NCBI GenBank assembly: GCA_964522405.1
Contig: CAZFTR010000003.1
Coordinates: 35,711 to 99,710 of the forward strand
Direction of reading: 5' to 3'
DNA length: 64,000 nt
Source: an uncultured Gammaproteobacteria bacterium
GTDB lineage: Bacteria > Patescibacteriota > Patescibacteriia > Magasanikbacterales > UBA922
Shown here: one piece after another, positions 9,610 to 49,208 of the stretch
Position numbering within the stretch: the first letter of the stretch is position 1
How the letters are laid out: each line of letters begins with the position of its first letter
Translations under genes and position numbers: made by a program
Notes under the pieces: model-generated
What the model saw: only the letters and a program-made list of their open reading frames with translations
Database searches by the model: none
What the model was told of the DNA's origin: nothing

Positions 9610-9790
9610 AATAATTTTTTTGAAAAACTAAGACCGTTAATCCATTGTATCACAGAACTTGATAACCCAAAATGTTCTGAATAAATAAAAAGTGAGTAAG
9701 ATGTGGAAAGGCTGTGGATTGTGTGGATAATTATTTAATGAAAAGAGATTTTTTTATTTAAATTTAGTGCTATTTCGGAAATAAAAAAAC
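9610..9790. promoter_or_regulatory. Candidate oriC core upstream of dnaA: DnaA-box cluster plus AT-rich unwinding stretch
   Basis: Perfect TGTGGATAA at 9722-9730. Adjacent CTGTGGATT (9712-9720) and ATGTGGAAA (9701-9709). These are followed by an AT-rich tract (GATTTTTTTATTTAAATTTAG...). Confidence 0.6.
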
Positions 9791-9848
9791 CGCCAATCCT
9801 CCTGTTTAAATTATGGTTTTTCATAAGCTAAACAGGCGGGCGGTTCTT
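9785..9848 (-). terminator. Long imperfect hairpin followed by a T-run on the minus strand; terminator for the GC-rich PGBD gene
   Basis: Minus-strand read: GAACCGCCCGCCTGTTTA...TAAACAGGAGGATTGGCGGTT then TTTTTTTATTT. Confidence 0.5.
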
Positions 9849-9931
9849 CATGAACTTTTCACCTTGGGGGGTGGCTGAATCAGCCGTAGGAAGGTGGGGT
9901 GTGTGGCGGGTGTGAGGGTTGAGGGTCAGCT

Positions 9932-10312
9932 CTAGTAGAGCAGTTCGGGCTCCGGGTAGAAGCCGTCCTCGCAGACCAGGGCGATCAGCGCCAGCTTGGT
10001 CGCGTCGTTGAACTCGCCATCGACCTGGACCTGCTCGCTCTCCTCGCTACCGTGGAGGATGAGGGCGGTCTGGAGCAGGCGCACGTCCCAGCCGGCGTCC
10101 TTCGGGTACATGACCTCGGCCCGGTACATCTGGTTGATGGTGGGCTCGTTGATCTCACCGGTGATCTCGAACTCGTCGTTGTCCTCCTGGTAGCTGCTCA
10201 GGGCCTGCCGAGTGCAGGGACCGAGCTCGCCATCGATCAGCAGCTCGCCGTCGGCGTCGTAGCCCTTGAGGGTCAGGAAGGCCTGGACCTGTCGGATCAG
10301 TTTGACATTCAT
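9932..10312 (-). CDS. Small protein with two peptidoglycan-binding (PGBD/PG_binding_1-like) repeats; gene is strongly GC-rich relative to its surroundings
   Basis: Repeats VQAFLTLKGYDADGELLIDGELGPCTRQALSSYQ and LLQTALILHGSEESEQVQVDGEFNDATKLALIAL. GAGGAG Shine-Dalgarno upstream. GC-rich codon third positions. Confidence 0.55.
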   Translation of the reverse strand: MNVKLIRQVQAFLTLKGYDADGELLIDGELGPCTRQALSSYQEDNDEFEITGEINEPTINQMYRAEVMYPKDAGWDVRLLQTALILHGSEESEQVQVDGEFNDATKLALIALVCEDGFYPEPELLY

Positions 10313-10394
10313 CTTGGGAACACTCCTCAGTGGTACCTGGCTATGGCCGGTACCTTCAAAAGTTCAAAATTAGTTATATCATTATTTTTTGGTC

Positions 10395-10423
10395 TTGACA
10401 AGTTTAAAGACTTTTAGTATAAT
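10395..10423 (+). promoter_or_regulatory. Sigma-70 consensus promoter TTGACA-17-TATAAT for the rpmH-rnpA-yidD operon
   Basis: Exact consensus hexamers with 17-nt spacer, about 70 nt upstream of the rpmH ATG. Confidence 0.65.
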
Positions 10424-10494
10424 TTTTGCACTATTCCTTTTAGTTTTGGTCTGGCTGGCCACAAGCTAGAAATTTCGAAAAAACTGATAAATAT

Positions 10495-10671
10495 ATGCCG
10501 AAAAGAACTTATCAACCAAAGAAGCGTAAAAGAGCTAAAACTCATGGTTTTTTTGCTAGAATGGCTACAAAGACTGGACGTAAGCTTCTTAAGAGAAGAA
10601 GAGCAAAGTCTAGAAAACAACTTACTGTAAGTGATGAAAAGAAAGGAAAACGCTTGAGAAAAACTAGATAA
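10495..10671 (+). CDS. rpmH: 50S ribosomal protein L34, with a roughly 13-aa basic C-terminal extension; absent from the ORF track because it is only 58 codons long
   Basis: Hand translation: [58 protein letters not shown]. Canonical L34 core. Conserved position before rnpA. Confidence 0.9.
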
Positions 10672-10749
10672 TTAGCTAAAATTAGCAGAAAATCTCGCCT
10701 AGGCGAGATTTTTGTGTTATAATATGCTTGCTGTTTGTTAATATTTTCT

Positions 10750-11127
10750 ATGATCCCCAAAGAAAATCGTCTAAAACATATGAAGGATTTTGATATTCTC
10801 TGGAAAGAGGGTAATTTTGTAAATTCCAAATATCTCTCAGCAAAGGTTTGGAAAATAGAGCCTGAGAAGTATGAAAGGCGTGGTTATTCAGTAGAGGATC
10901 TTAAAATTGGCTTTGTTGTGGGAAAAAAAGTTCATAAAAGTGCTGTAAAGCGTAACAAAATCAAGCGTCAGATGCGTGAAGTTGTGCGATTGCTCTTAAA
11001 GAGTGATAAGTTGAATCCTGGGTTTATGCTTGCTTTTACTGCAAAACCAGGTGTAGTTGGTGCTGAGTATGAGGAAATTAGTCAAAATACTGTTGATATT
11101 TTGAAAAAAGCAAGGATTTTGAGATAA
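10750..11127 (+). CDS. rnpA: RNase P protein component
   Basis: IPKENRLKHMKDFD N-terminus and RNR-like motif AVKRNKIKRQMRE. Position between rpmH and yidD. The ORF-track start at 10735 is probably 5 codons too long. Confidence 0.85.
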   Translation: MIPKENRLKHMKDFDILWKEGNFVNSKYLSAKVWKIEPEKYERRGYSVEDLKIGFVVGKKVHKSAVKRNKIKRQMREVVRLLLKSDKLNPGFMLAFTAKPGVVGAEYEEISQNTVDILKKARILR

Positions 11128-11139
11128 TTTGGCTAGTTT

Positions 11140-11415
11140 ATGCGAAGAATATTAAAATATCCACGAAAACCAGCACTTTTTTTAATAAGGGTTTATCAGA
11201 AATTCCTTTCACCTGATCATGGGCCTCTTAGGAATAAGTATCCTTATGGGTACTGCAAGTATTATCCTTCCTGTAGCCAGTATAGTTATGAAATTATTGA
11301 AAAAAAAGGTTTGGTTGTAGGTGTACCAAAATCTGTTTGGAGAATTCTGCGCTGCAATCCCTTTTCTGAGGGTGGGATTGATGAGCCTTATGAAAAAGAA
11401 AAAACTGACTGTTAG
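11140..11415 (+). CDS. yidD: Membrane protein insertion efficiency factor YidD
   Basis: YQKFLSP...CKYYPSCSQYSYEII...RILRCNPFSEGGIDEP matches the YidD signature. yidC, which normally follows, is not present. Confidence 0.85.
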   Translation: MRRILKYPRKPALFLIRVYQKFLSPDHGPLRNKYPYGYCKYYPSCSQYSYEIIEKKGLVVGVPKSVWRILRCNPFSEGGIDEPYEKEKTDC

Positions 11416-11426
11416 TCAGTTTTTAG
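11403..11426 (+). terminator. Hairpin AACTGAC-TGTTA-GTCAGTT plus a T-run, overlapping the yidD stop
   Basis: Read directly from sequence. Confidence 0.55.
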
Positions 11427-11645
11427 TTAGGGTTGTCATCAGCGATCGGAACACCTACGAAGTCCTGTCGCTCGCGAGCGACAGGACGAAGTAAGGGGTG
11501 AAGTGGAGAGGCCCCTTTCAATATGGTGAACGAATCGATTAAATGTTACTTTGATTATATAGAAAGGGATCCCTCGGCTTCATTTTTCTTTCAGAAAATT
11601 CCGCTCGGGATGACAGTTTATCCCCTTTTTTCCTTTTATGATTTA

Positions 11646-11873
11646 TCAACCATGAAGTTTAATAGTTTTCAATCTCGAAGTTTTTCCTCTTACTATTTCA
11701 ATTTTAGATTTCGGCATTTTCCAGTTCTTACTTAAAAATTGAATAAGAGATTTATTTGCTTCTCCATGAGTTGGAGGAGCTTTTAATTTTACTTTAATCG
11801 TCCCATCTTCCATTTCTCCAACAATTTCATTTTTAGAAGATCGAGGAATTAATTTTATTTTAATTAGTTTCAT
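11646..11873 (-). CDS. YggU/DUF167 (UPF0235) family small protein
   Basis: KVKLKAPPTHGEANKSLIQFLSK...IEIVRGKTSRLKTIKL matches the DUF167 signature. Confidence 0.75.
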   Translation of the reverse strand: MKLIKIKLIPRSSKNEIVGEMEDGTIKVKLKAPPTHGEANKSLIQFLSKNWKMPKSKIEIVRGKTSRLKTIKLHG

Positions 11874-11964
11874 AAGTTTTATTTCACTTTAAATCATAAT
11901 ATAAAATTAACAAAAATAAAACCACTCTTGCATAAGAGTGGTTTAGAAAATATTTTTTTAGTTT

Positions 11965-13323
11965 TTATTTTGCTTCTTTTTCTTCTTTCTTTTCTTCCTG
12001 CCTGTCGGCAGACACGGCAACTTTTTCAGAAGCTTTTTCTTCGCCAACAAATTTTTCTTTTAAAAATACAGTTACTTTTTTGTTGGCTAAAACATTTCTA
12101 ATAGTATCTTTTACTTCTGCGTGTCCAAGATTTTCCATTGCCTGAGGATCATCTTTGTAAGTTTGCTTCATGGTTTCAATTTCTTTTTCAAGTTCTTCGT
12201 CACTTACGGTGATATTGTTTTCAGTAGCAACATGGCGTGAAAGAAGACTTGCTTTGGCTCGCTTAGTAGCTTGAGTTTTGAAATCTTCAAATAATTCTTC
12301 TTCTGTTTTTTTGATATCAGCCATGTATTTCTCTACGCTAATTCCATGTCTATCCAAGTCTCTTTGAAGTTCATAAAACATTTTTTTGCGTTCAGCGTCT
12401 ACTATCACAACTGGGATTTCATCAAATTTACTTTTTTCAATAAGAGTATCAAAGATTTCAATCTCAAGTTTTTGTTCAGCTTTTTGCGCTTCTTCTGCTT
12501 CTAAATTTTTCTTCAGTAGTGCTTTTAGATCTTCAAGAGATTTTTGTCCAAGAGATTTTGCAAACTCATCATCAATTGCAGGAAATTGTCTTTCAAAAAC
12601 ATCTTTTACTTTTATTTCAAAAGTTGCTGGTTTTCCAGCAAGGTTTTTCTGATAATATTCTTTTGGAAAAGTTAATTCAAAAGATTTTTCATCATCTTTT
12701 TTTACACCGATAAGTTGTTCGTTGAATCCGGGAATATGTCTTCCTTCTTCTGAAAGATAAACTCGATAATCTTTTGCTTGGCCGCCCTCTACTGGAACTC
12801 CATCTTGCTTAAGATCCATATCAATCAAAACCATGTCATCTTTTGTCGAAGCTCCGCTCTTAACAACCTCTTTTGCTTGCATCTTGGTGAGATTTTCAAG
12901 CATTTCATCGGCTTCTTTGTCTGTAACTTCTTTGGTTTTCTTGGAAATTTTAATTTTGTCCAGATCAGCAAGTTCAACTTTTGGAAGAAGTGCCACAATT
13001 GCTTTGTAAACCAGGTCATTTCCTGGTGCAATCTTTTCAATATCAATTTGAGGCATACCAATAGTTTCCACGTCTTCTTCTTTTGCTGCAGCATAAAAAG
13101 TTCTCTGAACTATAGTTTCCAGAGCTTCTTGAAGAATTGCCATTTCTCCAACTTCCTTTTTTATAATATCATAAGGAGCTTTCCCCTTTCGAAAACCCTT
13201 AATAGCTGTTTTATTAGAGATCTTAATAGCTGCTTTCTTCATATCAGCCTCATATTCCTCGGGTTTTACTGTGATTACAAGCTCAACTTGAGACTGTGGA
13301 AGTGTTTTTGAAGTGTGTGACAT
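11965..13323 (-). CDS. tig: Trigger factor (ribosome-associated chaperone / PPIase)
   Basis: N-terminal ribosome-binding signature GFRKGKAP, roughly 450-aa three-domain layout, and a highly charged C-terminus. Confidence 0.9.
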   Translation of the reverse strand: MSHTSKTLPQSQVELVITVKPEEYEADMKKAAIKISNKTAIKGFRKGKAPYDIIKKEVGEMAILQEALETIVQRTFYAAAKEEDVETIGMPQIDIEKIAPGNDLVYKAIVALLPKVELADLDKIKISKKTKEVTDKEADEMLENLTKMQAKEVVKSGASTKDDMVLIDMDLKQDGVPVEGGQAKDYRVYLSEEGRHIPGFNEQLIGVKKDDEKSFELTFPKEYYQKNLAGKPATFEIKVKDVFERQFPAIDDEFAKSLGQKSLEDLKALLKKNLEAEEAQKAEQKLEIEIFDTLIEKSKFDEIPVVIVDAERKKMFYELQRDLDRHGISVEKYMADIKKTEEELFEDFKTQATKRAKASLLSRHVATENNITVSDEELEKEIETMKQTYKDDPQAMENLGHAEVKDTIRNVLANKKVTVFLKEKFVGEEKASEKVAVSADRQEEKKEEKEAK

Positions 13324-13445
13324 AAATATTATTTAATTTATTATCTAATAACAGCAACATTATGCGTTATTTTGCCTAAAATGTCAAGGATTTAAGGAAT
13401 AAAATAGCTAGCCCAAGACCTCTCAACATGTTACAATATAGGGGT

Positions 13446-16136: not shown

Positions 16137-16175
16137 TGAGTCTAAAGAGAAAAGTATAAAGGTGAACGGTGGAAA

Positions 16176-16202
16176 AATTCTGATGTAAGTCAGAATTTTT
16201 TA
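16176..16202 (+). terminator. polA terminator AATTCTGA-TGTAAG-TCAGAATT plus TTTTT
   Basis: Read directly from sequence. Confidence 0.65.
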
Positions 16203-16228
16203 TTGTGAAAACTGAAAAGTTCGGCGTA

Positions 16229-16628
16229 AATAAAAACGCCCCGATGGTCAATCGGAGCGCGTTTGCTGCTGAAGGGTGGCGGGGCTCGGAGAGTCCCGCC
16301 GACGAGTCCTGATGGTCGGCTGCTGGAACAGCCAACCGGATCTCGCCGCCCACTCAGCGCAGCGCGCAGCTCAACGAGGGAAGAGACCCCTCGCAGGCCA
16401 TCGGCACCTGAAGACCCAGGCGCGTAGCACACCGTTAGCCGCTTTGTGGACATCGTCCATTAAAGCACACTTTCTGAGTCTTGTCAAGCAGTTGCGCGCC
16501 TCACCGCTGCCCTCGACAGGCGGCAAAGGAGGACGCAATGCGCTCATCGTCACCGCCCGAACTTCGTCGTCAACCACCAGGCCCTCTGCCTGAGCTTCGC
16601 TTCAGTCCTGAAGATGAGGCTCTTTAAT
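16229..16628 (+). ncRNA. Candidate structured RNA 'element A': GC-rich, non-coding-looking, paralogous to element B at 28971-29215; family not identified
   Basis: No credible ORF of 60 aa or more. Preceded by a -10-like TAAATA and bounded by the polA terminator and a 20-bp inverted-repeat terminator. Its 5' 80 nt align with element B with compensatory hairpin changes. Strand is inferred from promoter and terminator placement. Confidence 0.45.
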
Positions 16629-16650
16629 ATTGTCAGGATGGTTATAAAGT

Positions 16651-16703
16651 ATCCAAACAAAAAATACAGCCAAAAGCTGTATTTTTTGTTTGGATTTTTT
16701 TTG
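16651..16703. terminator. Bidirectional terminator: 20-bp perfect inverted repeat ATCCAAACAAAAAATACAGC-CAAAA-GCTGTATTTTTTGTTTGGAT followed by T-run
   Basis: Read directly. It separates element A (+) from the convergent ndh-like gene (-). Confidence 0.75.
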
Positions 16704-18003: not shown

Positions 18004-18417
18004 TTATTTTTTAGAGGATTTTTTTATGAGAAGAGATTTGATTTCATCAAGGTCTTTTTGCATGTCCTGGATTTCGCGTTCAGCTTTTCTGTTTACTGCA
18101 TAGTCATATTTAGCAGTAATTCTGTCCCGTTCAGTTTGTCTGTTCTGGCTCATAAGGATAATAGGAGCCTGAATAGCTGCAACACAAGATAAAATTAGAT
18201 TGAGAAGAATAAAAGGGTATGGATCCCATTGATTGCTCCAGGCAGCCACATTGATCATCATCCAAAAAACTAAGAAAGTTAAGAAAATAATAATAAATAA
18301 CCAACTTCCAAAAAAAGAAGTAATGCTGTCAGTTGATCGTTGTCCAAGAGTTAACTTTTTTTTACCGGCTATTACCGGATGCTCTCCAGTTTTTCTATGT
18401 TTAAAAGGAATTTTCAT
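18004..18417 (-). CDS. DUF1003-family membrane protein
   Basis: WDPYPFILLNLILSCVAAIQAPIILMSQNRQ...RD matches the DUF1003 signature. Two TM helices. Confidence 0.7.
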   Translation of the reverse strand: MKIPFKHRKTGEHPVIAGKKKLTLGQRSTDSITSFFGSWLFIIIFLTFLVFWMMINVAAWSNQWDPYPFILLNLILSCVAAIQAPIILMSQNRQTERDRITAKYDYAVNRKAEREIQDMQKDLDEIKSLLIKKSSKK

Positions 18418-18591
18418 AGTGGCTTAATTATATCACAAAAATAATTGAAAAAAAATAAAATAAAAAACACCGAGTGGTGTTAAATTAAGATTCTCGACCG
18501 GCCCATGCTGAAGTGACAGGTGGTCGAGCATGGGACGGTGGGGTGAAAGAGCAGTGTGGTTTCCTCCTGTAAGGTTTGGCGGCGCAGCTCG

Positions 18592-18807
18592 CTACATGGA
18601 GGTGAAGATATGCCCCCGGAAGTCTTCAACTGCCATGGTGCGGACCGAAGTCCAGCCGATGTATGAGAGATGGACGTGGGGACGTCCCCCAAATTCGAAT
18701 TGGACATCCGGGCGAGCGATCCTCTCCTCGATTTCTTCCCTGGAGTCCAAGAGCGCGACCTGAACCACCTTGCGACCCTTGAGTCTCGGGTGGTCAACGA
18801 TTCTCAT
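18592..18807 (-). CDS. Hypothetical 71-aa protein encoded in a GC-rich segment; no family recognised
   Basis: Only protein-like frame in the GC-rich block 18470-18810. The other frames translate to Arg/Ser/Pro-rich junk. A pseudoknot-like repeat and a hairpin terminator lie just downstream on the minus strand. Confidence 0.3.
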   Translation of the reverse strand: MRIVDHPRLKGRKVVQVALLDSREEIEERIARPDVQFEFGGRPHVHLSYIGWTSVRTMAVEDFRGHIFTSM

Positions 18808-18958
18808 AGCCCCTCCTCTAGGCGCGTATTTAAGGAATAGTTAATCAAATAGGTAAGTTTTTGTCAAACAAAAAATTCCTATTTTGTGAAAGGAATTTTT
18901 TGCTATCTTTTTTGTACAAAAAAGGGAATGCCGACTTTGTGAGGAGTGCCGGCAACTC

Positions 18959-19441
18959 CTACCAGGGAAGCTTGAACGAGATGGTCGGCTTGAAGGCCAG
19001 AGACCAAGGACCGTCGACCAGCTTTCCCACTCCGAAGAGGAAAAGCAGGGAGGTCGTCTCGTTGATCTTGACGCCCGGGGTGACGGACAGTCCGATCAAA
19101 TGCTTCCACTCGTCGTTGTAGGGAGGGGTGGGTTCGTAGAGCAGGGTGATGGAGAGGAGGCTCTGCTCGGAGAGCTTAACCACTGGGCCAGTGAAGACAC
19201 GCGGGTTAGGTTTCAGTGCTGTCGTCGGGATCGAGATCCCGATTTCCGAGTGCCAGCCCAGTCCCTCGACCACCGGGAAGGCCACTCCGACGCCGAGCAC
19301 GGTTTTGCTCGGCAGAAACTTGGCGCCGTCGTCGGGGAAGGCCACGGCCCAGCTCTGGCCTGCGCCGATGCGGAAGGTCTGGGCGTTGGCAGTGTTGTAG
19401 AGGGGGGTGAGGATGGACAGGATCAGGATCAGGTTTTTCAC
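18959..19441 (-). CDS. Secreted beta-strand-rich protein with signal peptide and C-terminal aromatic residue (OmpW/PagL-sized beta-barrel-like); GC-rich
   Basis: Signal peptide MKNLILILSILTPLYNTANA. Alternating hydrophobic pattern. Ends ...FKLPW. Start overlaps the upstream gene by 4 nt (ATGA). Confidence 0.45.
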   Translation of the reverse strand: MKNLILILSILTPLYNTANAQTFRIGAGQSWAVAFPDDGAKFLPSKTVLGVGVAFPVVEGLGWHSEIGISIPTTALKPNPRVFTGPVVKLSEQSLLSITLLYEPTPPYNDEWKHLIGLSVTPGVKINETTSLLFLFGVGKLVDGPWSLAFKPTISFKLPW

Positions 19442-19713
19442 TTGGTTTCTCCTTCAAGTCCTTTAGTGAGCCAGTCGAAGAGCTTCACTCTGAGTCGCGA
19501 CTTGGCGAAAAACCAGCCTGCGCATGCGATGATGCCGGCCATGAAACCAGACCCCAGCATGTGGAACTTCAGGTTCTGCTCAGGGTTGAAACCCAGAAGG
19601 TCGCTACAGTAGTTGAACAAGTCGATCATGGCGTAGGCGTACAGGGAGACGCACCACAGAATCAACACGCCAGAGAGACCCCAGATCGGAATCACCAGGA
19701 TTTTTTTGACCAC
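19438..19713 (-). CDS. Small two-TM membrane protein (91 aa), first gene of a GC-rich two-gene cassette
   Basis: Two hydrophobic helices (ILVIPIWGLSGVLILWCVSLYAYA and GSGFMAGIIACAGWFFA). Translationally coupled to 18959..19441. Confidence 0.4.
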   Translation of the reverse strand: MVKKILVIPIWGLSGVLILWCVSLYAYAMIDLFNYCSDLLGFNPEQNLKFHMLGSGFMAGIIACAGWFFAKSRLRVKLFDWLTKGLEGETK

Positions 19714-19821
19714 AGTCGCCTCCGCGAACGGTTTAGAAGGAACAATTCAAGCTTGATGATCCAACTCTATCATATTTTTCTGTATGTGTCAAGTATATTT
19801 GGCTAAAATAAGCTAAAAAAA

Positions 19822-28843: not shown

Positions 28844-28915
28844 GACCCCATAGTTTAATGGATAGAACAAGAACCTCCTAAGTTCTGGGTCCACGTTCGA
28901 TTCGTGGTGGGGTCA
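28844..28915 (+). tRNA. tRNA-Arg (anticodon CCU)
   Basis: Folded by hand: acceptor GACCCCA/TGGGGTC, D-stem GTTT/GAAC, anticodon stem AGAAC/GTTCT with loop CTCCTAA, T-arm CCACG-TTCGATT-CGTGG, discriminator A. Confidence 0.8.
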
Positions 28916-28970
28916 CATTTGGAAATTCTATATTTATAGGATTTCTTTTTTTAGATCAATTTTGCTTTTC

Positions 28971-29215
28971 AAATAAAAACACTCGATGATATCATCGAGC
29001 ACATTGTTGATGAAGGGCGGCGGGTCTCAGAGAGTCCCGCCGATGAGCTCCCATGTGTCGGCTCCGGTTCAGCTCGACAAGAGCTCATCACTCAAAGGTG
29101 AGGCAGGCCAGCATACAGGAAAAATCTGGTTTCCGGTAGCGATAAACATTCTAACCGCAGTATCGCGAAAGTACGGCGGTTCGAGTGCATTAGGCACCGC
29201 ATCACAGAGCTAGTT
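28971..29215 (+). ncRNA. Candidate structured RNA 'element B', GC-rich, paralogous to element A; sits about 55 nt after tRNA-Arg
   Basis: No protein-like ORF. The 5' 80 nt align with element A with compensatory changes in the first hairpin. Blocks of similarity continue through the element. Confidence 0.45.
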
Positions 29216-29422
29216 CAATTTACACGCTTTACTCTATTTTGTCAAATTTATATTTAATGATTTTTTAATAAAAATTTAATGATTATCGTGAAACATCAGT
29301 TTAGAATTTTTTAATTAAATCTTAATCTTTTTCCTAGTTTTATAGAGTAGTCTGTACAAAATTATTAAATGTGGGCTGTTTTGACTTTCCTAAACTGTGC
29401 ATAACTCTCCAAAGAGTTTAAT

Positions 29423-30280: not shown

Positions 30281-30446
30281 CAATGTTGTCGGAAGCTTAC
30301 AACATTTTAACTAGATAAATTAGACTATACTCAGCCTAATTTTTTATATAATCTAAAAATTGTAATTTTCCAATTTACATTTTGCTCATTTTAAATTATA
30401 TTATATTTGAATATTCAACTGGCTCCAAAGGAGCTAGGAGGCAAGA

Positions 30447-30716
30447 ATGACCAGAATGAGCGCCTACTTCGGTGGCGGTGTTATCAGCTTCAAGAGAGAC
30501 CCCGACGACAAGATGTCGCCTACTGACGGCGTGATCCAGCCGGGCAAGGAGTTTGAATTCTACCCGTCCTACTACGAGCGCATCATTCTGACCCACGGTC
30601 GTGCCACCATCAATGGCAAAACCATGGTCGCTGGTGATGAGATCGTCGTTCCTACAGGTAAAAAGATCTGCATCCTGGCTCACGAAGTGAGCTGTTACGA
30701 GTGCTACTACAGCTGA
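30447..30716 (+). CDS. ppnP: PpnP/YaiE (DUF1255) family cupin-like pyrimidine/purine nucleoside phosphorylase homolog; GC-rich gene
   Basis: SAYFGGGVISFKR...GKEFEFYPSYYERIILTHGRATINGKTMVAGDEIVVPTGKKICILAHEVSCYECYY parallels E. coli YaiE (NEYFSGKVKSIGF...GEYTF...VISGAL...AGSVFNVPGHSEF...YLCRY). AGGAGG Shine-Dalgarno. Confidence 0.55.
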   Translation: MTRMSAYFGGGVISFKRDPDDKMSPTDGVIQPGKEFEFYPSYYERIILTHGRATINGKTMVAGDEIVVPTGKKICILAHEVSCYECYYS

Positions 30717-30830
30717 GACCAACAAAGGGGAACTCACGTGCACGTGTATCTTGACGGCAGCCTTTGCCAGTCGTCGAGATGCATTCAAAACAACCCAGAA
30801 TATGGGTTGTTTTGTTAGTTTAAGATGAAA

Positions 30831-31817
30831 TTATTTTATATATTCAAATTGTAATTTTGAAACTAAATCTGTTTTTTTAATCTCAGATTCTATTTTCATC
30901 TCAAGTCTGCGCTCAAGACCGTGAGCAAGTGATTCAGAAATTTTTAATAATTTATTTTGATCCATTTCCAGTTGATCTAAGTTCTCGAGAGCTTTTTTTC
31001 CTGTTTCTTTTGAAATAAAATCCTTTGGAAAATCAATTAATAGTCCTCTACCAAAGTTTTTCATAATATGTGCTGCTGTGATTGATAGATTCATAGCATG
31101 AGGACTGTTATGTTGGCACTGCAAATCAGCTTCTAGAAGTTCTGTATTTAGTTTTGAGGTTAAAATCTTGTCTGAAATATTTTTTCCTGTTTCATTTATG
31201 TCTGTTGCTAGATTTATATTAATTCTTCTGTGAGAACAAGAGCTTCCAGTGTATTGTTTTATGTAGTTTTCAAGATTTCCTGCGCTTGGAATGACTGGAT
31301 CAGGACCTAGATGATTTACTTTTGTTTGTATTACCGGATCATATGGTGACATGGAGTGGATATCTAGCCAAACTCCTCCTGGCTTCAAACTTTTTATAGT
31401 TTTAAAAATATTCTTCATGGTTTTTTTGTGAAGTATTCTAAGTTGCTTTAGAATTTTTTCATTTTTTCTAAAATCAAAAACATTTCTAATTGCTTTTTCA
31501 GAACTTATTCTTCCGAGATCAAGTATTCCGCGTGGAATTTGTACATCAAATATATCTACTCGTATTTTCTTTTTGGAATTTTCTACTAATTTCTTTGCGG
31601 TTGTGTGGGCAAGTTCTCTTGTTCCAAAATCATATTCTATTTTAAGAAATTTTTTAAAAGTACCTTCAGAATCCTGAAGCGCTTCCCGAAGCAGGGGATT
31701 ATTTTCATAAAAATCTATTCCATCATCTGAATGCAGACATAGCAAAAGGCAATCAGGTCGATCAGATTTGTAATTTGAATAAGTTGTAATTTTAAATTTT
31801 TCTGTTTTTATTTTCAT
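30831..31817 (-). CDS. Hypothetical protein, possibly N-formylglutamate-amidohydrolase (FGase)-like amidohydrolase/deacylase
   Basis: LLLCLHSDDGIDFYENNPL and GGVWLDIHSMSPYD resemble the FGase-family HxG...DxHSM pattern. AT-rich. Immediately downstream of the ATP-grasp gene on the same strand. Confidence 0.35.
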   Translation of the reverse strand: MKIKTEKFKITTYSNYKSDRPDCLLLCLHSDDGIDFYENNPLLREALQDSEGTFKKFLKIEYDFGTRELAHTTAKKLVENSKKKIRVDIFDVQIPRGILDLGRISSEKAIRNVFDFRKNEKILKQLRILHKKTMKNIFKTIKSLKPGGVWLDIHSMSPYDPVIQTKVNHLGPDPVIPSAGNLENYIKQYTGSSCSHRRININLATDINETGKNISDKILTSKLNTELLEADLQCQHNSPHAMNLSITAAHIMKNFGRGLLIDFPKDFISKETGKKALENLDQLEMDQNKLLKISESLAHGLERRLEMKIESEIKKTDLVSKLQFEYIK

Positions 31818-31912
31818 ATTATAATTTTAAATTTAGACAACCAAATGCCAAATATATTTTGACACTTAGATGCCCGCGCTGTGTCCTCCAGGTACAACGC
31901 TTGGCCTCCTTA

Positions 31913-33223
31913 TCAGTTGTTGATCAGTGTGCGGAACTCGTCCCGCGCAGCGCTCGCAGCGATTTGCGAGGTAGCCACGACTGCGAACGAGAACCAGCCC
32001 TTGAGCTCAGGATCAGGTGGCGAGACGATGATGATCTTCACCTTCGCGCAGTCAGTCTCTTCCTGAACTCGGCGTTCGGCCTGCTCGGCAAGAGCGTTCA
32101 ACTCACTGGCGGAGAAGACCTTACCCTTGATGGGCGGATCTTCGTCGTACTCAGCGAAGAGTTGGCTCTTGTTCGTTTCCCAGAGCTTGGCCAGTTGCTC
32201 CAGGATGTTGAGGATCACGCTCGTGAGCAGCACGCGCGCGTTGCTCTCGAAGTAGAAGCGAACTCTTTCTCCGAGTGCTGCATCCACGTCGGCGTCACCG
32301 CGGTAGCCCATCTCGTGCAGATGCCAGCCGTAGGCGAGCGCTTCCTCGATGACTTGCTCGAGACCGGGGATGGCAGGGCAAGGCACGGTGCAGCCCACCG
32401 ACTCAAGGCCATTGAGTCGACGGAGCGTGGTCGCCACGATCTTCGGACCTGCGTCCATGATCTCCATGACCACCGAGATGGCCTTCAGACCCTGGTAGAG
32501 ATCGTAGAGGTGTGGCTCGACCAGTACTGCGACCGGGTCAGCGATCTTGGCGATCGCTTTTCGCAGCTCTGCTTCGGTCGCGCAGAGCGCGTTGCCCAGG
32601 CCACCGGCCGAAACGATCTCGCGCAGAACCGCGCGCACGGCCCTCGCCAGCTCCTTGCGCGCCCGATCGAAGATCTGCTTGCGATCAGTGATGGCGGTCG
32701 GTGCGTTGGGTAGCGGAAGTCCATGCTCGTCACAGTAGAGCGTGAACCTCTGCTTGTCGTTGCTGCGTTGCGGTAGGCCTGCCTTGACCAGGTCTTCGGG
32801 GGTGCCGAGCACCTCGAGACCGAGTTCATTCCCCAGCTTGCAGACCGATGCGTGTTGCATGAGTGGTCCCAGCTTGTAGCCCTGGCGGCCGAGCTCGGTG
32901 ATCTCCCGACAAAGTCGCGGACTCCTTCGAATTTCTGCCACGAAATCAAAGGGTGAGCCCGGCATGTGGTCGAGGTAGAGCGGCTTGACCCGGAAGCCCA
33001 TGATCGAGGCGTGGTAGTCGAGGAGCTCCTCAATACCTTCGGTCGGCGGCAAGATGATGGTGTCGCCCGGCCCGATGCGCCACAATCCACGCAAGACCAG
33101 TTTGGCGCATTTGGCAGCGACCTTGCCCTCAGCCGGTTTGTTGAAAAACCTGCCGTAGTTCTCAACTGCGATAACTTTCATTTCCCCCTGCTCCAAGTGC
33201 GTGGATTCAAAAAAACTTCTCAC
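31913..33223 (-). CDS. ATP-grasp-fold carboxylate-amine ligase-like protein; GC-rich gene
   Basis: C-terminal catalytic block GYRGDADVDAALGERVRFYFESNARV parallels the D-Ala-D-Ala ligase/RimK pattern GxRGxARVDF....E(V/I)N..PG. The plus-strand ORF 31859..32713 is an antisense shadow. Confidence 0.5.
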   Translation of the reverse strand: MRSFFESTHLEQGEMKVIAVENYGRFFNKPAEGKVAAKCAKLVLRGLWRIGPGDTIILPPTEGIEELLDYHASIMGFRVKPLYLDHMPGSPFDFVAEIRRSPRLCREITELGRQGYKLGPLMQHASVCKLGNELGLEVLGTPEDLVKAGLPQRSNDKQRFTLYCDEHGLPLPNAPTAITDRKQIFDRARKELARAVRAVLREIVSAGGLGNALCATEAELRKAIAKIADPVAVLVEPHLYDLYQGLKAISVVMEIMDAGPKIVATTLRRLNGLESVGCTVPCPAIPGLEQVIEEALAYGWHLHEMGYRGDADVDAALGERVRFYFESNARVLLTSVILNILEQLAKLWETNKSQLFAEYDEDPPIKGKVFSASELNALAEQAERRVQEETDCAKVKIIIVSPPDPELKGWFSFAVVATSQIAASAARDEFRTLINN

Positions 33224-33545
33224 CCACGCTGTGCGGGTAATTTTTTTGCTCTATTGCCTAATAAAACAAAAAACTTACCCGCATGGATAAGAAGTTTGTT
33301 CCAAAAATCTATTCAAAAGACTTTGGCTTATCTTTCCCAGCAAGGGTTGGAAGGAGCACCTTGCTCAGATTGAGTAGGTTGCTAGAGAGTCACAGGGCCA
33401 ATTCCCTCATCTCTTCTTGATATTTCTAAATTGTCTAAAAGATCTGTTATTAGAATAATATATTTTTGGAAAATTGTCAAATTCGGTTTTTTGGTTGACC
33501 TAGAGAAAAATATCTGCTATAATCTTTCTACTTTGTTTAAATAAC

Positions 33546-33619
33546 GGGCCTGTAGCTCAGCTGGCTAGAGCATCGCCATGGCATGGCGGGGGTCAGGAGT
33601 TCGAATCTCCTCAGGTCCA
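33546..33619 (+). tRNA. tRNA-Ala (anticodon GGC)
   Basis: Acceptor GGGCCTG/CAGGTCC with the G3:U70 Ala identity pair. Anticodon loop ATGGCAT. T-arm AGGAG-TTCGAAT-CTCCT. Confidence 0.8.
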
Positions 33620-33628
33620 CATTTTTTT

Positions 33629-43223: not shown

Positions 43224-43227
43224 AATA

Positions 43228-44964: not shown

Positions 44965-45079
44965 ATATAAATAGACTAAAACAAAAGAGAAAATACTCTT
45001 CTTTATTTAATGATAGCATATTTTTGCTTTGTTAGATAGGTGATTTATTGACTTTTTGGGATTGAAAGTGTAATCTATT

Positions 45080-45811
45080 TTGCATATGTTAAAAAAACTA
45101 ATTTATATAATTCAATTCCGAACAGATGCTTCAGAAGAGCATGAAAAAAAATGTTTCAATGAGCAATTAAGTGATTATCAAGATAATCTAGTTTTTATAA
45201 ATGCTGTGAATCAAGAACTTTCACTTGAAAAAATGCCCAATGTAGCTGCAATTATTCTTGGCGGAAGCGGTCAATTCTATGCCTCAAAAGATGATCAAAG
45301 AGCTCCTCATAAAAAAACTCTTGATTTTATAGATCGAGTTTTGGAGGCAGAGATCCCGCTGCTTGGAATATGTTATGGAATGCAAATGTTATGTGTGAAA
45401 TACGGATCTAAAATGGTGGATGATAAAAAATATCATGAAAATGGTAGTTTTTTGGTGGAGAAGTTGGCAGCGGCAGATAGCGATCCTTTGCTTGGTAAAA
45501 TGCCACAAGAATTTTTTGGTCAATTTGGTCATAAAGAGGCTGCTATAAACATTCCTGATGATTTAATATGTCTTGCCAGATCAGAGCGGGTTGATTGTCA
45601 GGCTGTTCGTGTGAAAGGTAAGGATGCTTGGGGTGTTCTTTTCCATGCAGAATTAAATTATCAGCATCTTAGAGAAAGGACTATGATTTTTCCTGACTAC
45701 GCAAGTGATCCGCAAAATCTTGAAGAGTCAATGAAGAATTTTCAAGAGGCTCCGGAGTCAAATGATTTCCTTAGATTTTTTGTTAAGTTGGCTTTGGATA
45801 AAAATCATTGA
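45080..45811 (+). CDS. Class I glutamine amidotransferase-like protein (standalone GATase1 / gamma-glutamyl hydrolase-like)
   Basis: Nucleophile elbow LLGICYGMQ and a His in VLFHAELN. No synthase domain is fused. Confidence 0.65.
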   Translation: MHMLKKLIYIIQFRTDASEEHEKKCFNEQLSDYQDNLVFINAVNQELSLEKMPNVAAIILGGSGQFYASKDDQRAPHKKTLDFIDRVLEAEIPLLGICYGMQMLCVKYGSKMVDDKKYHENGSFLVEKLAAADSDPLLGKMPQEFFGQFGHKEAAINIPDDLICLARSERVDCQAVRVKGKDAWGVLFHAELNYQHLRERTMIFPDYASDPQNLEESMKNFQEAPESNDFLRFFVKLALDKNH

Positions 45812-46071
45812 CAAGAGTAATTTTTTTTGATAGCTTGTAGTTAAGTATGAGTAATATAAAAACAAACAACTTCTTTTTCTTTTTTGGAGATTCCGCTAGG
45901 CGGTAAGTCTTTTTCAAAAGATTTGTTCACCGCCAAAAGCGGTGTTTTTTTCTACTCAATTTTGGTTTGACAACGGTATTTAGGTAAATATCATTGTCAG
46001 TCCAAAAGCATTTGCCTAGGACTAACTGCTCTTTCTTTTTTTGTTTTTTCTTCGGCACAGGGGTCTATTCC

Positions 46072-47052
46072 ATGTTCAAAAAGACGGCGCTTCTCGCCAC
46101 TCTCAAGGTCCTCCAGGCGTATGCTGCCAAGCAGGCTGTCGATCAGATGTTCGAGGCACAGAGGCGTGCCTTCGACAAGATGAGCGACTTCCAACGGCGT
46201 CTCGCCAGGCGTGCCTTCATCTACAGGCGTCGGGCTATGTACGCCAGGAACTGGCACAACCCTCGTACTGTGGGGTGCGAGCTCGAACTCGTCATGTGTC
46301 GTCTTTCCGAGGACGGCAGCTTCTACGAGATCCATGGCAAGGTCGCGGAGCTGGTCGAGAAGATCGCAGCTCAGCATCCGAAGCTGGCCAAGTTCTTCGA
46401 CATCGAGTTCTCGGCGCATCAGATCGAGATCAGAACCGGAGTGCACATCTGCATTAACCAGATGCTCGACGAGCTGTTCGAGCTGATCGGCATCGCTCGA
46501 AAGGTCGCGGCTGAGCTGGGCTACGAACTCCACGCGGTTGAGTACATCGACTGCGAGTACAAGTTCGCTGCCCTCGACGTCACGCCGGGAGAAGTCGAGC
46601 CTGCCTACCTGGCCTTTGCCATGCAGAACCCGAGCAAGATCGACGCCATGTGCCGCGTGGCAGCGTTCCAGGTCTCGTTCGGACTCTGCAGCGAGCGCGA
46701 GGCCATCGACGTGCACAACCGGCTCATCGAGGCTCTGCCTGAGCTCATGCTTCGCTGGATGGACAGCGTTCGCAAGAAGCTCTTCGGACAGGTCATCGCG
46801 CCTGGGGTCTTCGACACGGGTCCGCTTCAGAACCTGGGCGAGCTCTTCGACCGCATGGCTGAGGCTGGATGTCTCGGTGGTCGCAAGGGGCGTTACTACC
46901 CGGCGATTCGGCTCCAGGACAAGATCCCGGTGGCTGAAGTGCGGATCGGCGGCGCCACCGACGATCGGGAGCAGATGTTCCGGATGATCTGCGAGTTCTT
47001 CAAGGTCGCATTCCCGAGAGAGGCTCCGCCTCTCCGTCACATCTTCTGGTAG
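46072..47052 (+). CDS. GCS2/YbdK-like carboxylate-amine ligase-related protein (short paralog, tentative); strongly GC-rich
   Basis: GC-rich third codon positions on the plus strand. TVGCELELVMCRL resembles the YbdK 'TLGIELEM' ligase motif. The first 26 codons of the ORF track (FFFCFFF...) are AT-rich non-coding, so the start is placed at 46072. The minus-strand ORF 45997..47040 is an antisense shadow. Confidence 0.4.
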   Translation: MFKKTALLATLKVLQAYAAKQAVDQMFEAQRRAFDKMSDFQRRLARRAFIYRRRAMYARNWHNPRTVGCELELVMCRLSEDGSFYEIHGKVAELVEKIAAQHPKLAKFFDIEFSAHQIEIRTGVHICINQMLDELFELIGIARKVAAELGYELHAVEYIDCEYKFAALDVTPGEVEPAYLAFAMQNPSKIDAMCRVAAFQVSFGLCSEREAIDVHNRLIEALPELMLRWMDSVRKKLFGQVIAPGVFDTGPLQNLGELFDRMAEAGCLGGRKGRYYPAIRLQDKIPVAEVRIGGATDDREQMFRMICEFFKVAFPREAPPLRHIFW

Positions 47053-47094
47053 GAGGAAGGGGGGGAGGTCGGCGTGTTCCCCACCACGCTGACC

Positions 47095-47136
47095 AAACTC
47101 TTTTGCATATAAGTTTTATATGCAAAAGAGTTTTTT
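47095..47136 (+). terminator. Strong terminator: 18-bp stem AAACTCTTTTGCATATAA-GTT-TTATATGCAAAAGAGTTT plus T-run
   Basis: Read directly from sequence. Confidence 0.75.
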
Positions 47137-47573
47137 CCACAAAATTTATTGACTGATTTTGTATATATGCTAATCTATAATTAGTATGAATCTAAAAAAT
47201 AGTCAAAAATTCATTATTCTGCCAGTGACTCCCTCCTAATTTGGCGGTTTTTTAGAACATATTTACCTCAACCCGCCAAAAAGGCGGGATTTTATTTATT
47301 TGGCTAATTTAAGATAAATCCCTTGACTAAACCATCTAAATTTGCTAATTTAAATTGTTAAATAGTGTTAAGATTAGAAGTTGATAAATAATATGATTAT
47401 TTTACAACTTTTGTTCTTTACAGTTGATGCTAGAAATTGTCCTTGTCTATTGATTTGCTGAATTTTCAGTGCATCAATAGGCAAGGACAGCTCTGTCCGG
47501 GCCGGTACGGGCATGACGTCCAAGCTGGCTTTGCCAGACAACCACCACGAAGCAGAGGGAGTCGAGAAGGCAA

Positions 47574-48950
47574 TTGGCCACGAAGCGACATCGAAACAAT
47601 TACGAGCGGGTTCGCAACAGACTCGCTGAACTCTTCACCAACGTCCCACGTGTTGCACTGGGACAGCGATTGACGCTGGGGCTTGAGGAGGAGTTCCAGT
47701 TCGTTCAGTCGACCGGCCTTCCCGGCCAGGCCTACCCCGTCATCGAGGGTGTCAGCCGGATGGAGGGCTACGAAGCTGTCTACGACGACATCTTCACTGA
47801 CGAGCTGATAGCTGCCCGTCATCCGGTTTTCGGGGGGCTGGGCTGGGATGCCGGCTACTCTCTGGTCGAGTGGGATTCCCCGCCTGTCACTCGAGTACAG
47901 ACGGCCGACGCTCTGCGCAACCAGATGCTCTGCACGGTGCTGCCGCTCGCAGGCCGAAACAGGCTGACGGTGGCGGGTATCGGCAGACTGCCTCTCGGCA
48001 AGGGCAGATCTGAGAGCTGGAAGCGCAAGGGTCGCTATGAGACCATGCGTTCCTGCTACGGGCCGGAGATCAACGCCGCTACCATGTGTGCGGCTCGCCA
48101 GGTCTCGGTCGGCACGCGGAGTATGCGTCACCAGATCAAGGTGACCAACACCTTCCTGGCGCTCTCGGGCGCCATCACGGCCATGACCGCCAACTCTCCG
48201 ATTCACTGCGGTCGAGCGCACAAGAAGATGCTGGCTTCGCGTCAGTTCTTCTGGTCCTCGTTCGCTGAGGCGAGTCGGGTCGGAGTCCCCAACCGACCCT
48301 TCGGCGGTCTCGGCTCTCTCCTCGACTGGCTGCTCGGCGAGAAGCTGCTCTTCTACAAGAAGGATGGCCAGTACGTCAAGTGCGGTCAACTCTTCTGGAG
48401 GGCGGCGGCTCGCTACGTCAACGACGACGAGATGTTCACGCAGATGGCACTGCTCCACATCGGCACCTGCTGGCAGGAGGCGCGGGCACGCATTCTCAAC
48501 GGTACGGTCGAGTTCCGCTCCATGTGCCAGCAGCCTCAGTCCACTGGTGCTGCCTGCGAGGCTCTGATCGTCGGACTGGCTGAGAACGTCGGCGAGGCCT
48601 GGGATCTGGTTCTGACCCACACCTGGGATCAGTGGCGAGAGAGTCGCGATCGTGGAGCCTGCCTCAGCTTCGGCGCCAAGGTCGGTCGCGAGCCCATGGT
48701 TCGAGTCTGCAACAGCGTGCTCAACGTGGCTGAGCGTGGACTCAAGATGCGTAAGTTGCGCGAAGAGCGCTATCTGCGCCCCTTCCGCGAGCGCGTCCTG
48801 CGCCGTCGGGCCCCGGCTCTCGACCAGCTTCGTTCCTGGGGCAAGGGTGGGCGCCAGCAGCTGATCCAGGACTCGGCCTACGAGATTGAGGCGTTGCCCA
48901 GCTACAGCAGCTACCGCGACCAGCTCGAGGCCATGGCCAGCTGCGCCTAG
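47574..48950 (+). CDS. Glutamate-cysteine-ligase family 2 (GCS2/YbdK-type) carboxylate-amine ligase; strongly GC-rich
   Basis: LTLGLEEEFQFVQSTGL matches the GCS2 N-terminal signature. GC-rich third codon positions. The annotated start is TTG, and the true start may be the in-frame TTG just before TLGLEEEF. The minus-strand ORF 47466..48974 is an antisense shadow. Confidence 0.55.
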   Translation: MATKRHRNNYERVRNRLAELFTNVPRVALGQRLTLGLEEEFQFVQSTGLPGQAYPVIEGVSRMEGYEAVYDDIFTDELIAARHPVFGGLGWDAGYSLVEWDSPPVTRVQTADALRNQMLCTVLPLAGRNRLTVAGIGRLPLGKGRSESWKRKGRYETMRSCYGPEINAATMCAARQVSVGTRSMRHQIKVTNTFLALSGAITAMTANSPIHCGRAHKKMLASRQFFWSSFAEASRVGVPNRPFGGLGSLLDWLLGEKLLFYKKDGQYVKCGQLFWRAAARYVNDDEMFTQMALLHIGTCWQEARARILNGTVEFRSMCQQPQSTGAACEALIVGLAENVGEAWDLVLTHTWDQWRESRDRGACLSFGAKVGREPMVRVCNSVLNVAERGLKMRKLREERYLRPFRERVLRRRAPALDQLRSWGKGGRQQLIQDSAYEIEALPSYSSYRDQLEAMASCA

Positions 48951-49208
48951 CATCAACGACCGAATCGCCGTCATCAGGGAGACGGCGTGTAGGGAGGGAA
49001 TTGGGCGGAGTGTGTGCGTGTCATGCGTAGCACACCGCCCCGGTTCTTGTGCAAATAAGTTTATTGTTTGTAAAAGAAACTTTAATAGTGAGTAATCAAT
49101 AGTGTTTAAGCACTATTGATTTTTTTATTTAATAAATCTTAATCAGTAACAAAATTGCCAGTAAGTTTTTTTTGTGTTAATCTTCACCTCATAAATTATA
49201 AAATTCTT

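Follow-up and report, generated by a model that had tools for sequence, protein, structure and literature searches.

Nine GC-rich islands in an AT-rich bacterial chromosome, one of which, a riboswitch-controlled ATP-grasp gene, appears to have kept its composition in five diverged genomes

Atypical base composition within a bacterial genome is usually read as a sign of recent gene transfer, and Lawrence and Ochman are said to have described, in 1997, an amelioration model for horizontally acquired genomic islands. GC-biased gene conversion has reportedly been proposed for bacteria by Lassalle et al. in 2015, and whether GC content is maintained locally by selection or by biased conversion is a question that has been debated for bacteria. 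GC-rich structural RNA genes stand out in AT-rich genomes, which is the basis of GC-content screens for non-coding RNA in AT-rich archaea. Among single genes with which the present locus invites comparison, LdmS is an S-box-regulated ATP-grasp L-Asp-L-Met ligase of the Staphylococcaceae, encoded with the M20 peptidase HmrA (PMC9486568). Here we describe a stretch of 64,000 nt from the bacterial contig CAZFTR010000003.1 (hereafter the window), in which nine GC-rich islands are embedded in AT-rich DNA, and we concentrate on one of them, a predicted ATP-grasp ligase gene behind an S-adenosylmethionine (SAM) riboswitch, a gene that is 54–62% GC in five genomes. The bacterium has the look of a small-genome organism and is probably a member of the Patescibacteria, or Candidate Phyla Radiation (CPR). 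Some contigs among its closest PolA relatives have names that point to groundwater metagenomes from the 0.1-um filter fraction. The DNA glycosylase Tag is shared too widely to place the host, its best match being 70% identical and its matches coming from many phyla.

The GC profile of the window was computed in 300-nt windows and segmented with a two-state hidden Markov model (HMM), which returned exactly nine GC-rich segments, 6451 bp in total, with a mean GC of 0.609 (range 0.54–0.63) against a background of 0.353; a 300-nt window at 0.60 GC lies about nine binomial standard deviations above that background. In order along the window, the islands lie at 9833–10354 (island 1, GC 0.625), 16237–16622 (island 2, 0.632), 18493–18826 (island 3, 0.590), 18924–19731 (island 4, 0.583), 29015–29210 (island 5, 0.566), 30419–30782 (island 6, 0.541), 31872–33136 (island 7, 0.613), 46083–47094 (island 8, 0.613) and 47480–49043 (island 9, 0.632). 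Seven of these segments correspond to eight protein genes, and the other two, islands 2 and 5 (elements A and B), to paralogous non-coding RNAs on the minus strand. An earlier, sequence-only reading of this DNA had claimed nine GC-rich blocks, and the HMM recovered all nine within about 50 nt of the positions it gave; its impression that so many insertions in 64 kb are unusual was likewise borne out. Counted by one uniform criterion, islands number 10.9 per 100 kb in the window, where they cover 9.4% of the bases; unrelated bacterial and archaeal contigs (1.18 Mb) have 0.08 per 100 kb, and the contigs of relatives identified via PolA (0.9 Mb) have 0.99.

GC at third codon positions (GC3) is 0.71–0.92 in the open reading frames (ORFs) of the islands against 0.19–0.27 in those of the host, as the sequence-only reading had anticipated, and the windowed GC and GC3 profiles proved not to be uniform, so that the islands stand. 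All seven coding islands show strong three-base periodicity, with GC3 well above GC at second positions (GC2). Third positions in every island are composed of C (0.42–0.59), G (0.22–0.37), A (0.02–0.14) and T (0.04–0.20), and this composition is nearly identical in four ATP-grasp orthologues. The dinucleotide signature distance between islands and host is 0.202, compared with 0.043 among chunks of host DNA and 0.07–0.08 among the three largest islands, and the relative abundance of CpG is 0.99 in the islands and 0.52 in the host, where CpG is strongly depleted. The GC-rich DNA also keeps its antisense frames open, again as had been claimed.

Most units are flanked by AT-rich, sigma-70-like promoter-like sites of the host type and by intrinsic terminator-like sites, in agreement with the earlier description of host-like signals; the flanking signals of the island 1 unit and the promoter of the island 3 unit were read by eye only. 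Because the edges of the islands coincide with these promoter-like and terminator-like sites, the unit would be the transcript, or the DNA fragment beneath it. Untranslated stretches within the islands are 62% GC when pooled over 676 nt, compared with 27% in host intergenic DNA, and codon-level translational selection as the sole cause is ruled out because the untranslated parts are as GC-rich as the rest.

Island 7 carries most of the argument. It occupies 31872–33181 on the minus strand, its GC-rich part by HMM ending at 33136, and holds a single coding sequence (CDS; 33181 to 31913, 422 aa) with a GC3 of 0.75. The product had been annotated by eye as an ATP-grasp protein, and this assignment holds: the match to Pre-ATP-grasp (PF18604; E 4e-4, 21.3 bits) falls below the Pfam cut-off of 27.5, the ATP-grasp fold was matched by structure comparison, and all eight of eight homologues have a precomputed PF18604 match. 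In the whole-chain Foldseek comparison of the AlphaFold model (pLDDT 89), the best match was the PGM1 peptide ligase 3WVQ/3WVR (3WVR_B, E 2.8e-22, TM score 0.75); further Streptomyces ATP-grasp peptide ligases and BesA came next. The invariant ATP-grasp motifs are kept across nine homologues.

Upstream of the gene lies a regulatory leader of host type (33220–33480, minus strand), which comprises a promoter (33480 to 33452), a SAM-I (S-box) aptamer (33426 to 33325) and the riboswitch terminator (33291 to 33274); the aptamer scores 62.1 bits with the SAM-I family RF00162, whose gathering threshold is 44.4. Between this terminator and the start codon of the ATP-grasp gene is another hairpin with a T-run (33240 to 33220), which may be a second attenuation element. 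Beyond the leader, and divergent from the cassette, is tRNA-Ala(GGC) (33546–33620, plus strand; ARAGORN and Rfam), and on the other side is tRNA-Arg(CCT) (28844–28916, plus strand), which adjoins the RmuC gene. Three tRNAs and this riboswitch are the only known structured RNAs that Rfam finds in the window at gathering threshold. By analogy with LdmS under its own S-box control, the ATP-grasp ligase is likely to be switched on at low SAM.

The riboswitch-linked core of the protein family is small. A sequence search of 5.8 billion clusters returned eight homologues, the best outside match being 39% identical, and a profile search of 1.84 billion representatives returned 823 relatives from the wider ATP-grasp family at E up to 0.001, of which only about eight, the riboswitch-linked core, precede a steep drop in score. 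Amino-acid usage in this core is uniformly of the high-GC type (GARP/FYMINK 1.23–1.52). A metagenome scan with the ATP-grasp alignment found no relative.

Four other environmental genomes carry the cassette: L087 (GCA_964365165.1), L088 (SRR28842990), L089 (GCA_964554925.1) and L170 (JGI 3300010430, a 3.4-kb contig). The ATP-grasp gene lies next to tRNA-Arg(CCT) and RmuC in L087, L088 and L089, and this tRNA is the conserved anchor of synteny in these three and in the window; L087 and L088 also have S20, holA and Pyr_redox further along, as in the window, and L088 shares the adjacency to tRNA-Ala(GGC). In L170 the shared neighbourhood consists of the SAM riboswitch upstream and, by eye only, a downstream spacer that is conserved and an incomplete tRNA-like end at the edge of the contig. 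Rfam detects the riboswitch before the ATP-grasp gene at 62.1 bits in the window, 48.4 in L088 and 60.6 in L170; the leader in L089 (3171–3372) is 78% identical in nucleotides to the L088 riboswitch and scores below the Rfam gathering score, and in L087 (2297–2775), which has the orthologue, no SAM riboswitch was detected. Since the same cassette lies in the same neighbourhood in these relatives, it would have been inherited.

GC and GC3 of the ATP-grasp gene are 0.60 and 0.75 in the window, 0.60 and 0.75 in L087, 0.62 and 0.78 in L088, 0.59 and 0.73 in L089, and 0.54 and 0.66 in L170. The GC3 of RmuC is 0.29, 0.59, 0.38 and 0.49 in the first four of these, a neighbouring gene in L170 has 0.28, and background GC3 across the five genomes runs from 0.25 to 0.59. 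At conserved residues, ATP-grasp orthologues share identical codons about as often as chance would have it (71 against 66 expected in one comparison, 72 against 68 in another), and synonymous sites must therefore have turned over completely, that is, to saturation. Neutral amelioration would predict that the excess GC3 had by now decayed to a small fraction, and it appears to have decayed in none of the five lineages. Given that GC3 is still 0.66–0.78 despite saturated synonymous sites, the composition would be maintained by a gene-specific force and not be fading. On these sequence comparisons, the ATP-grasp island appears to be old, its GC-richness kept across five diverged genomes, and the earlier description of the islands as not yet ameliorated fails for this one.

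The explanation that we put forward, with what we would call an even chance of being right, is that the islands derive from foreign single-gene units and that selection at the level of the transcript keeps their transcripts GC-rich, the mechanism being one that we infer. The units would have begun as single-gene fragments taken up at different times from high-GC lineages, and the type IV pilus genes of the host would be compatible with DNA uptake. Once resident, they would be held back from drifting to the composition of the host by a force that acts along the entire transcribed segment and keeps GC high; this would most likely be selection for strongly folded, GC-rich transcripts, exerted through mRNA stability or translation rate. 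The result would be a genome with two lasting compositional classes of gene.

Folding of the mRNAs gives this explanation support that is suggestive, not decisive. In absolute terms, island mRNAs fold at about -42 kcal/mol per 120 nt compared with about -16 for host genes. Relative to synonymous shuffles, the ATP-grasp mRNA has z-scores of -2.8, -7.2, -2.4, -2.6 and -4.6 in the five lineages, the second GCS2-type ligase gene (GCS2b, island 9) has -4.3 and the 160-aa protein gene of island 4 has -4.4; four host genes give 0.07, -2.25, 0.18 and -1.5.

Several points weigh against selection on transcripts of foreign origin. The folding excess is modest, with z-scores of -0.4 for the peptidoglycan-binding-domain (PGBD) gene of island 1 and -1.4 for the first GCS2-type ligase gene (GCS2a, island 8), while the host gene tig reaches -2.25; synonymous shuffling moreover destroys dinucleotide context too, which can bias such scores. 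Divergence is much faster in the ATP-grasp proteins than in host proteins (L088 and L089 share 53% identity in the former and 89% in RmuC), which leaves room for repeated replacement from an unseen GC-rich pool, and ATP-grasp distances among four taxa agree only roughly with the RmuC distances. Persistence has been demonstrated for a single island, and the other eight could still be recent. Lastly, no donor was found for any island, so the case for foreign origin rests on composition, signature and absence from relatives.

A broader proposition, which we offer tentatively and think somewhat doubtful, is that the lineage maintains two heritable classes of gene, the minority class consisting of units, coding and non-coding alike, that are held at about 60% GC over their full transcribed length for long enough to saturate synonymous sites. 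The cause might be selection for structured, long-lived or slowly translated transcripts, or else a bias of repair or conversion that is targeted to the unit. Foreign GC-rich genes would then join the class instead of ameliorating, and composition would mark a functional class of transcript and not recent ancestry.

Recent, independent transfers from a high-GC donor, which the sequence-only reading had proposed for all nine islands and which we weigh for the eight not shown to be conserved, seem to us unlikely. In its favour are the atypical composition and signature and the comparison with the two closest relatives, L125 (PolA about 75% identical) and L092. In both of these, polA, DUF1003 and holA are contiguous; in the window, element A and a Pyr_redox gene stand between polA and DUF1003, and islands 3 and 4 (18493–19731) and a TrmB-like gene stand between DUF1003 and holA. 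Element A and islands 3 and 4 would thus be insertions relative to the closest relatives, in which they are absent; the ATP-grasp island, by contrast, occurs in L087, L088, L089 and L170. Two cassettes have direct repeats around them that might be of the target-site kind, and the ATP-grasp protein is the only island protein that occurs in the approximately 2.2 Mb of fetched loci, the others having no occurrence there.

Against recent transfer stands the ATP-grasp island itself, which is orthologous, syntenic and still GC-rich in five genomes, even though their synonymous sites have reached saturation. Nor did the search for the claimed high-GC donor find one: across the 5.8 billion clusters and 1.84 billion representatives the best outside matches are 25–39% identical (39% for ATP-grasp and 25% for GCS2b, which has a single outside homologue), a result unexpected if the source were among the well-sampled high-GC phyla, and the PGBD protein has no homologue in the 5.8 billion clusters. 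The islands are, furthermore, wired into host regulation through the S-box riboswitch and set in coherent AT-rich neighbourhoods. No integrase, transposase, recombinase or reverse transcriptase was found among about 65 larger ORFs of the window that were scanned, and the search for att-type structure found only short direct repeats, of 13 bp (ppnP) and 11 bp (the 71-aa unit). A viral origin was considered and rejected, neither the motif common to elements A and B nor the PGBD protein having a match in viral contigs. Of the claim of repeated horizontal acquisition there survive, then, the atypical codon usage and signature and the insertion of some islands relative to L125 and L092, and not the recency or the donor.

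Improbable, too, in our view, is a local, non-adaptive process, in which native or long-resident genes would have been made GC-rich by hot spots of GC-biased gene conversion or by a repair bias tied to the unit. That the conserved island is both GC-rich and fast-evolving, at the rates given above relative to RmuC, is the combination expected of such hot spots; the GC-richness of untranslated parts and a third-position profile that is uniform across unrelated islands and lineages also fit. The magnitude does not, since GC3 would have to rise from 0.25 to 0.75–0.9 with edges sharp to tens of nucleotides, and the effects described in bacteria are reportedly of a few percent and far smaller. Neither the high-GC type of first and second codon positions and of amino-acid usage nor the absence of some islands in relatives is explained by it. 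Transcript-level selection on foreign-derived units is the account that we prefer to both of these.

The sequence-only reading had counted elements A and B among its GC-rich blocks, correctly, and had implied the wrong strand: both are non-coding and transcribed from the minus strand. Element A (16237–16622) ends in a terminator at 16260 to 16236. Element B (28979–29212) is a non-coding RNA of about 225 nt with a promoter, TTGACA-17-TAAATT, at 29245 to 29217 and a terminator at 29002 to 28979, and is convergent with tRNA-Arg(CCT). Neither has codon periodicity, their position-specific GC being flat, and relative to shuffled sequences B folds at z -5.8 and A at z -2.8. Homology between the two extends over about 120 nt of the 3' ends (E 1.8e-8), and they have common hairpins with three compensatory pairs, in a comparison of two sequences only. 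Elements A and B are structured non-coding RNAs. Neither belongs to an Rfam family, even in relaxed searches, no further members occur in the fetched loci, and apart from A with B no sequence is common to the islands. GC-rich non-coding stretches in L088 and L089 were compared as candidate homologues, without support. Element A has an internal promoter-like site, TTGACA-17-TTTAAT, at about 16475–16447, and may consist of two units: about 150 nt of GC-rich sequence on the 5' side, without counterpart in B, and a 3' paralogue of B of about 220 nt.

It is very improbable that all the GC-rich blocks are structured RNA genes of this kind, with their ORFs no more than chance open frames. The idea holds for A and B, which lack periodicity, fold strongly and have promoter and terminator, and we keep it for these two only; that antisense frames stay open in GC-rich DNA also speaks for it. 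For the seven coding islands it is refuted by their periodicity, with GC3 well above GC2, by their Pfam domains, and by the confident ATP-grasp fold with motifs invariant across nine homologues. As candidates for rRNA or another known structured RNA the islands were rejected, the Rfam scan at gathering threshold placing none there.

That the mosaic is an artefact, produced by chimeric assembly of a metagenome, by contamination or by engineering, is scarcely credible, given independent assemblies that cross its junctions and four other environmental genomes with the same GC-rich cassette in the same neighbourhood. The window does come from a metagenome-type assembly, and Logan contigs tend to end near islands. 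Logan assemblies of three runs (SRR8146440, SRR8146441 and SRR31802803) are, however, 100% identical to the window and cross the AT/GC junctions at 10354, 18493–19731, 31872 and 33136; the contigs concerned are L001 (9914–11594), L002 (18468–28972), L003 (18035–24784), L004 (30793–32177) and L086 (the riboswitch and ATP-grasp gene). Their ends fall at terminator hairpins, where a de Bruijn graph is expected to break. One contig gives some cause for suspicion: L001, which crosses the junction between rpmH and the PGBD gene, is identical to the window down to 9914 and then ends in 30 nt (L001 1679–1708) that match the body of dnaA (8343–8372), inverted. This end is probably a graph-tip or chimeric-read artefact, 30 being k-1, although it might reflect structural variation at the origin. 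Chimeric assembly, which the sequence-only reading had raised as an alternative, is contradicted at the junctions so crossed, and an engineered origin, which it had also raised, is implausible for a cassette that environmental relatives have too.

The remaining coding islands are varied in content, and the by-eye annotations of their domains were confirmed by Pfam: PF01471 at E 1.9e-9, GCS2 twice, at E 1e-5 and 5e-9, and Ppnp at E 2e-5. Island 1, on the minus strand, lies between rpmH and a cluster of DnaA boxes upstream of dnaA (about 9700–9730), and encodes a 126-aa protein with a peptidoglycan-binding domain (CDS 10312 to 9932, PF01471 or PG_binding_1, GC3 0.92); its untranslated parts, 42 nt at the 5' end and 99 nt at the 3' end, have a GC of 0.60–0.61. 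Island 3, also on the minus strand, has one 71-aa ORF (18807 to 18592, GC3 0.71) with a terminator at 18481 to 18466; the ORF has no Pfam match, and the exact protein is on record in Logan. The whole unit, from promoter through gene to terminator, lies within an exact 11-bp direct repeat, AAAGGAATTTT, at 18404–18414 and 18889–18899 (empirical P about 0.04). Island 4, on the same strand, is a two-gene unit with a promoter-like site at 19792 to 19764, encoding a 91-aa protein with two transmembrane segments (19713 to 19438, GC3 0.73) and a secreted, beta-rich protein of 160 aa (19441 to 18959, GC3 0.83) whose C-terminus is ...FKLPW; the two CDS overlap by 4 nt, and neither protein has a Pfam match.

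Island 6, on the plus strand, carries a PpnP-like (cupin) gene of 89 aa (CDS 30447–30716, GC3 0.71), matched by PF06865 at 25.2 bits against a cut-off of 25, with a promoter at 30374–30402 and a terminator at 30786–30814. This cassette, too, lies as a whole within an exact direct repeat, the 13-bp AAATTGTAATTTT at 30357–30369 and 30846–30858 (empirical P about 0.003), and on sequence grounds the repeats around the ppnP and 71-aa cassettes may be insertion scars. Between island 6 and the ATP-grasp gene is an AT-rich gene of 328 aa (30831–31817, minus strand, GC3 0.19), which follows the ATP-grasp CDS on that strand after 95 nt and forms a mosaic pair with it. Its product has no Pfam match; it may have its own promoter (31851 to 31824), and its junction to island 7 is covered by L004, from SRR31802803.

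Islands 8 and 9, both on the plus strand, encode GCS2-type ligases. GCS2a (CDS 46072–47052, GC3 0.78) matches PF04107 at 26 bits against a cut-off of 21 and has a promoter at 45967–45994 and a GC-rich terminator hairpin at 47067–47094. GCS2b (CDS 47574–48950 with a TTG start, GC3 0.78) matches the same family at 36.3 bits against the same cut-off, with a GC-rich leader of 94 nt and trailer of 93 nt (GC of these untranslated regions 0.62–0.63) and a terminator at 49094–49121. In both genes the PF04107 profile is matched only in part, over positions 22–167 of 291. With the PGM1-like ATP-grasp protein, these make three islands that are likely to encode ATP-dependent amide-bond ligases, one ATP-grasp and two GCS2. 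The AT-rich spacer between the GCS2 genes (47095–47479, about 385 bp) has promoter-like sites of its own and a strong terminator-like hairpin (47272–47288), and may encode a small RNA or peptide. Directly 5' of the pair is an AT-rich gene for a class-I glutamine amidotransferase or peptidase C26-like protein (45080–45811, plus strand; PF00117 E 8e-15, PF07722 E 6e-7), and directly 3' an AT-rich gene for an M20-family peptidase (49155–50300, plus strand; PF01546 E 1.4e-25). To judge from their families, these two neighbours appear functionally coherent with the GC-rich amide-bond ligases.

Exact-sequence look-ups placed the host proteins on an NCBI contig of 110,401 bp, whereas the products of the three island ORFs looked up alongside them (9932–10312, 18592–18807 and 30447–30716) turned up on short Logan contigs alone; for the 422-aa ATP-grasp product, NCBI and Logan both have entries. 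The Logan-only record suggests that these GC-rich genes were uncalled, or called with a different start, in the deposited entry.

The relatives have GC-rich single-gene islands of their own, at 10391–10795 in L087, 21032–21457 in L091 and 8831–9046 in L088, of which the first two encode secreted proteins of 134 and 141 aa (GC3 0.91 and 0.87) and the third a 71-aa ORF; none of the three is homologous to an island of the window. The L087 island occupies the same slot, between Pyr_redox and holA, as islands 3 and 4 of the window (18493–19731). Between the ATP-grasp cassette and the tRNA-Arg and RmuC genes, three relatives have an AT-rich intergenic motif with DnaA-box-like repeats (TGTATACA...CACAGTTATCCnnnGTTTTCCnCAGAnTTATnCACA), at 5380–5450 in L088, 5860–5930 in L089 and about 3000–3060 in L170; it is 89.9% identical between L088 and L089 and absent from the window.

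Genes of the wider window include dnaA, dnaN, rpmH-rnpA-yidD, PBP1A, trigger factor, polA, a type IV pilus cluster, S6, S18 and S20. The sign of the GC skew switches near 7.8 kb, as would fit an origin next to dnaA and dnaN, and the DnaA boxes of the window, those next to island 1, have been placed above. Six consecutive T4SS_pilin (PF18895) genes lie at 57231–63365, with genes for pilin-like proteins that have an N-terminal methylation motif just upstream (52461–54868).

Should the persistence seen for the ATP-grasp gene hold up, base composition could be a stable, gene-specific character, and both amelioration dating and the detection of transfer by composition would be unreliable in such lineages. 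The ATP-grasp cassette offers a tractable natural case for the local maintenance of GC, by transcript selection or by biased conversion. There are practical corollaries, in that GC-rich genes of this kind may be missed or given wrong starts by gene callers in AT-rich genomes, and may be discarded as contamination in binning. The locus also yields a predicted S-box-regulated, PGM1-like ligase in a probable CPR bacterium and, in elements A and B, a possible new family of small RNAs.

A literature search on persistent GC-rich islands in CPR genomes found nothing specific. Several known systems invite comparison. The window shares with horizontally acquired genomic islands its atypical composition, codon usage and signature, the absence of some islands in close relatives, and the adjacency of two islands to tRNA genes. 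It differs in that its units are single genes, lack integrase, transposase and att-type structure, stand out as GC-rich from an AT-rich host and have no identifiable donor, and in that at least one of them would be unameliorated, against the amelioration model, despite saturated synonymous divergence in five lineages. Integron gene cassettes, too, are single-gene units that often encode orphan proteins; the window, by contrast, has no integrase, attC-like sites or array, and its units are scattered over 40 kb, each with a promoter and a terminator of its own. Elements A and B resemble the GC-rich RNA genes of AT-rich genomes in being GC-rich, strongly folding and non-coding with their own promoter and terminator, and depart from them in having neither an Rfam family nor another member in the fetched loci; the class to which they belong here, moreover, includes seven protein-coding units. 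Locally raised GC3 and fast evolution of the conserved island are shared with GC-biased gene conversion in bacteria, although the magnitude and the sharpness of the edges are far beyond anything known to have been reported, and amino-acid composition is shifted as well.

For the ATP-grasp gene two comparisons are apt. In fold it is closest to the PGM1-type ligases of Streptomyces (3WVQ/3WVR, 8YND) and to BesA (8YI6), which agree with it over the whole chain and whose PF18604 domain is found in its homologues, but identity is only 14–19%, and the gene in the window is solitary, riboswitch-controlled and outside any secondary-metabolite cluster, in a host that is not an actinomycete. With LdmS it has in common an ATP-grasp amide-bond ligase behind a SAM-I riboswitch, and M20 and C26-type genes adjoin the other two ligase islands of the window; the LdmS structure 7R8Q is, however, a distant match (Foldseek ranks 31 and 44), PGM1 (3WVQ) being closest, and ldmS does not stand out from its host in composition. 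By these analogies, LdmS would be the closest regulatory precedent of the gene and PGM1 its closest fold.

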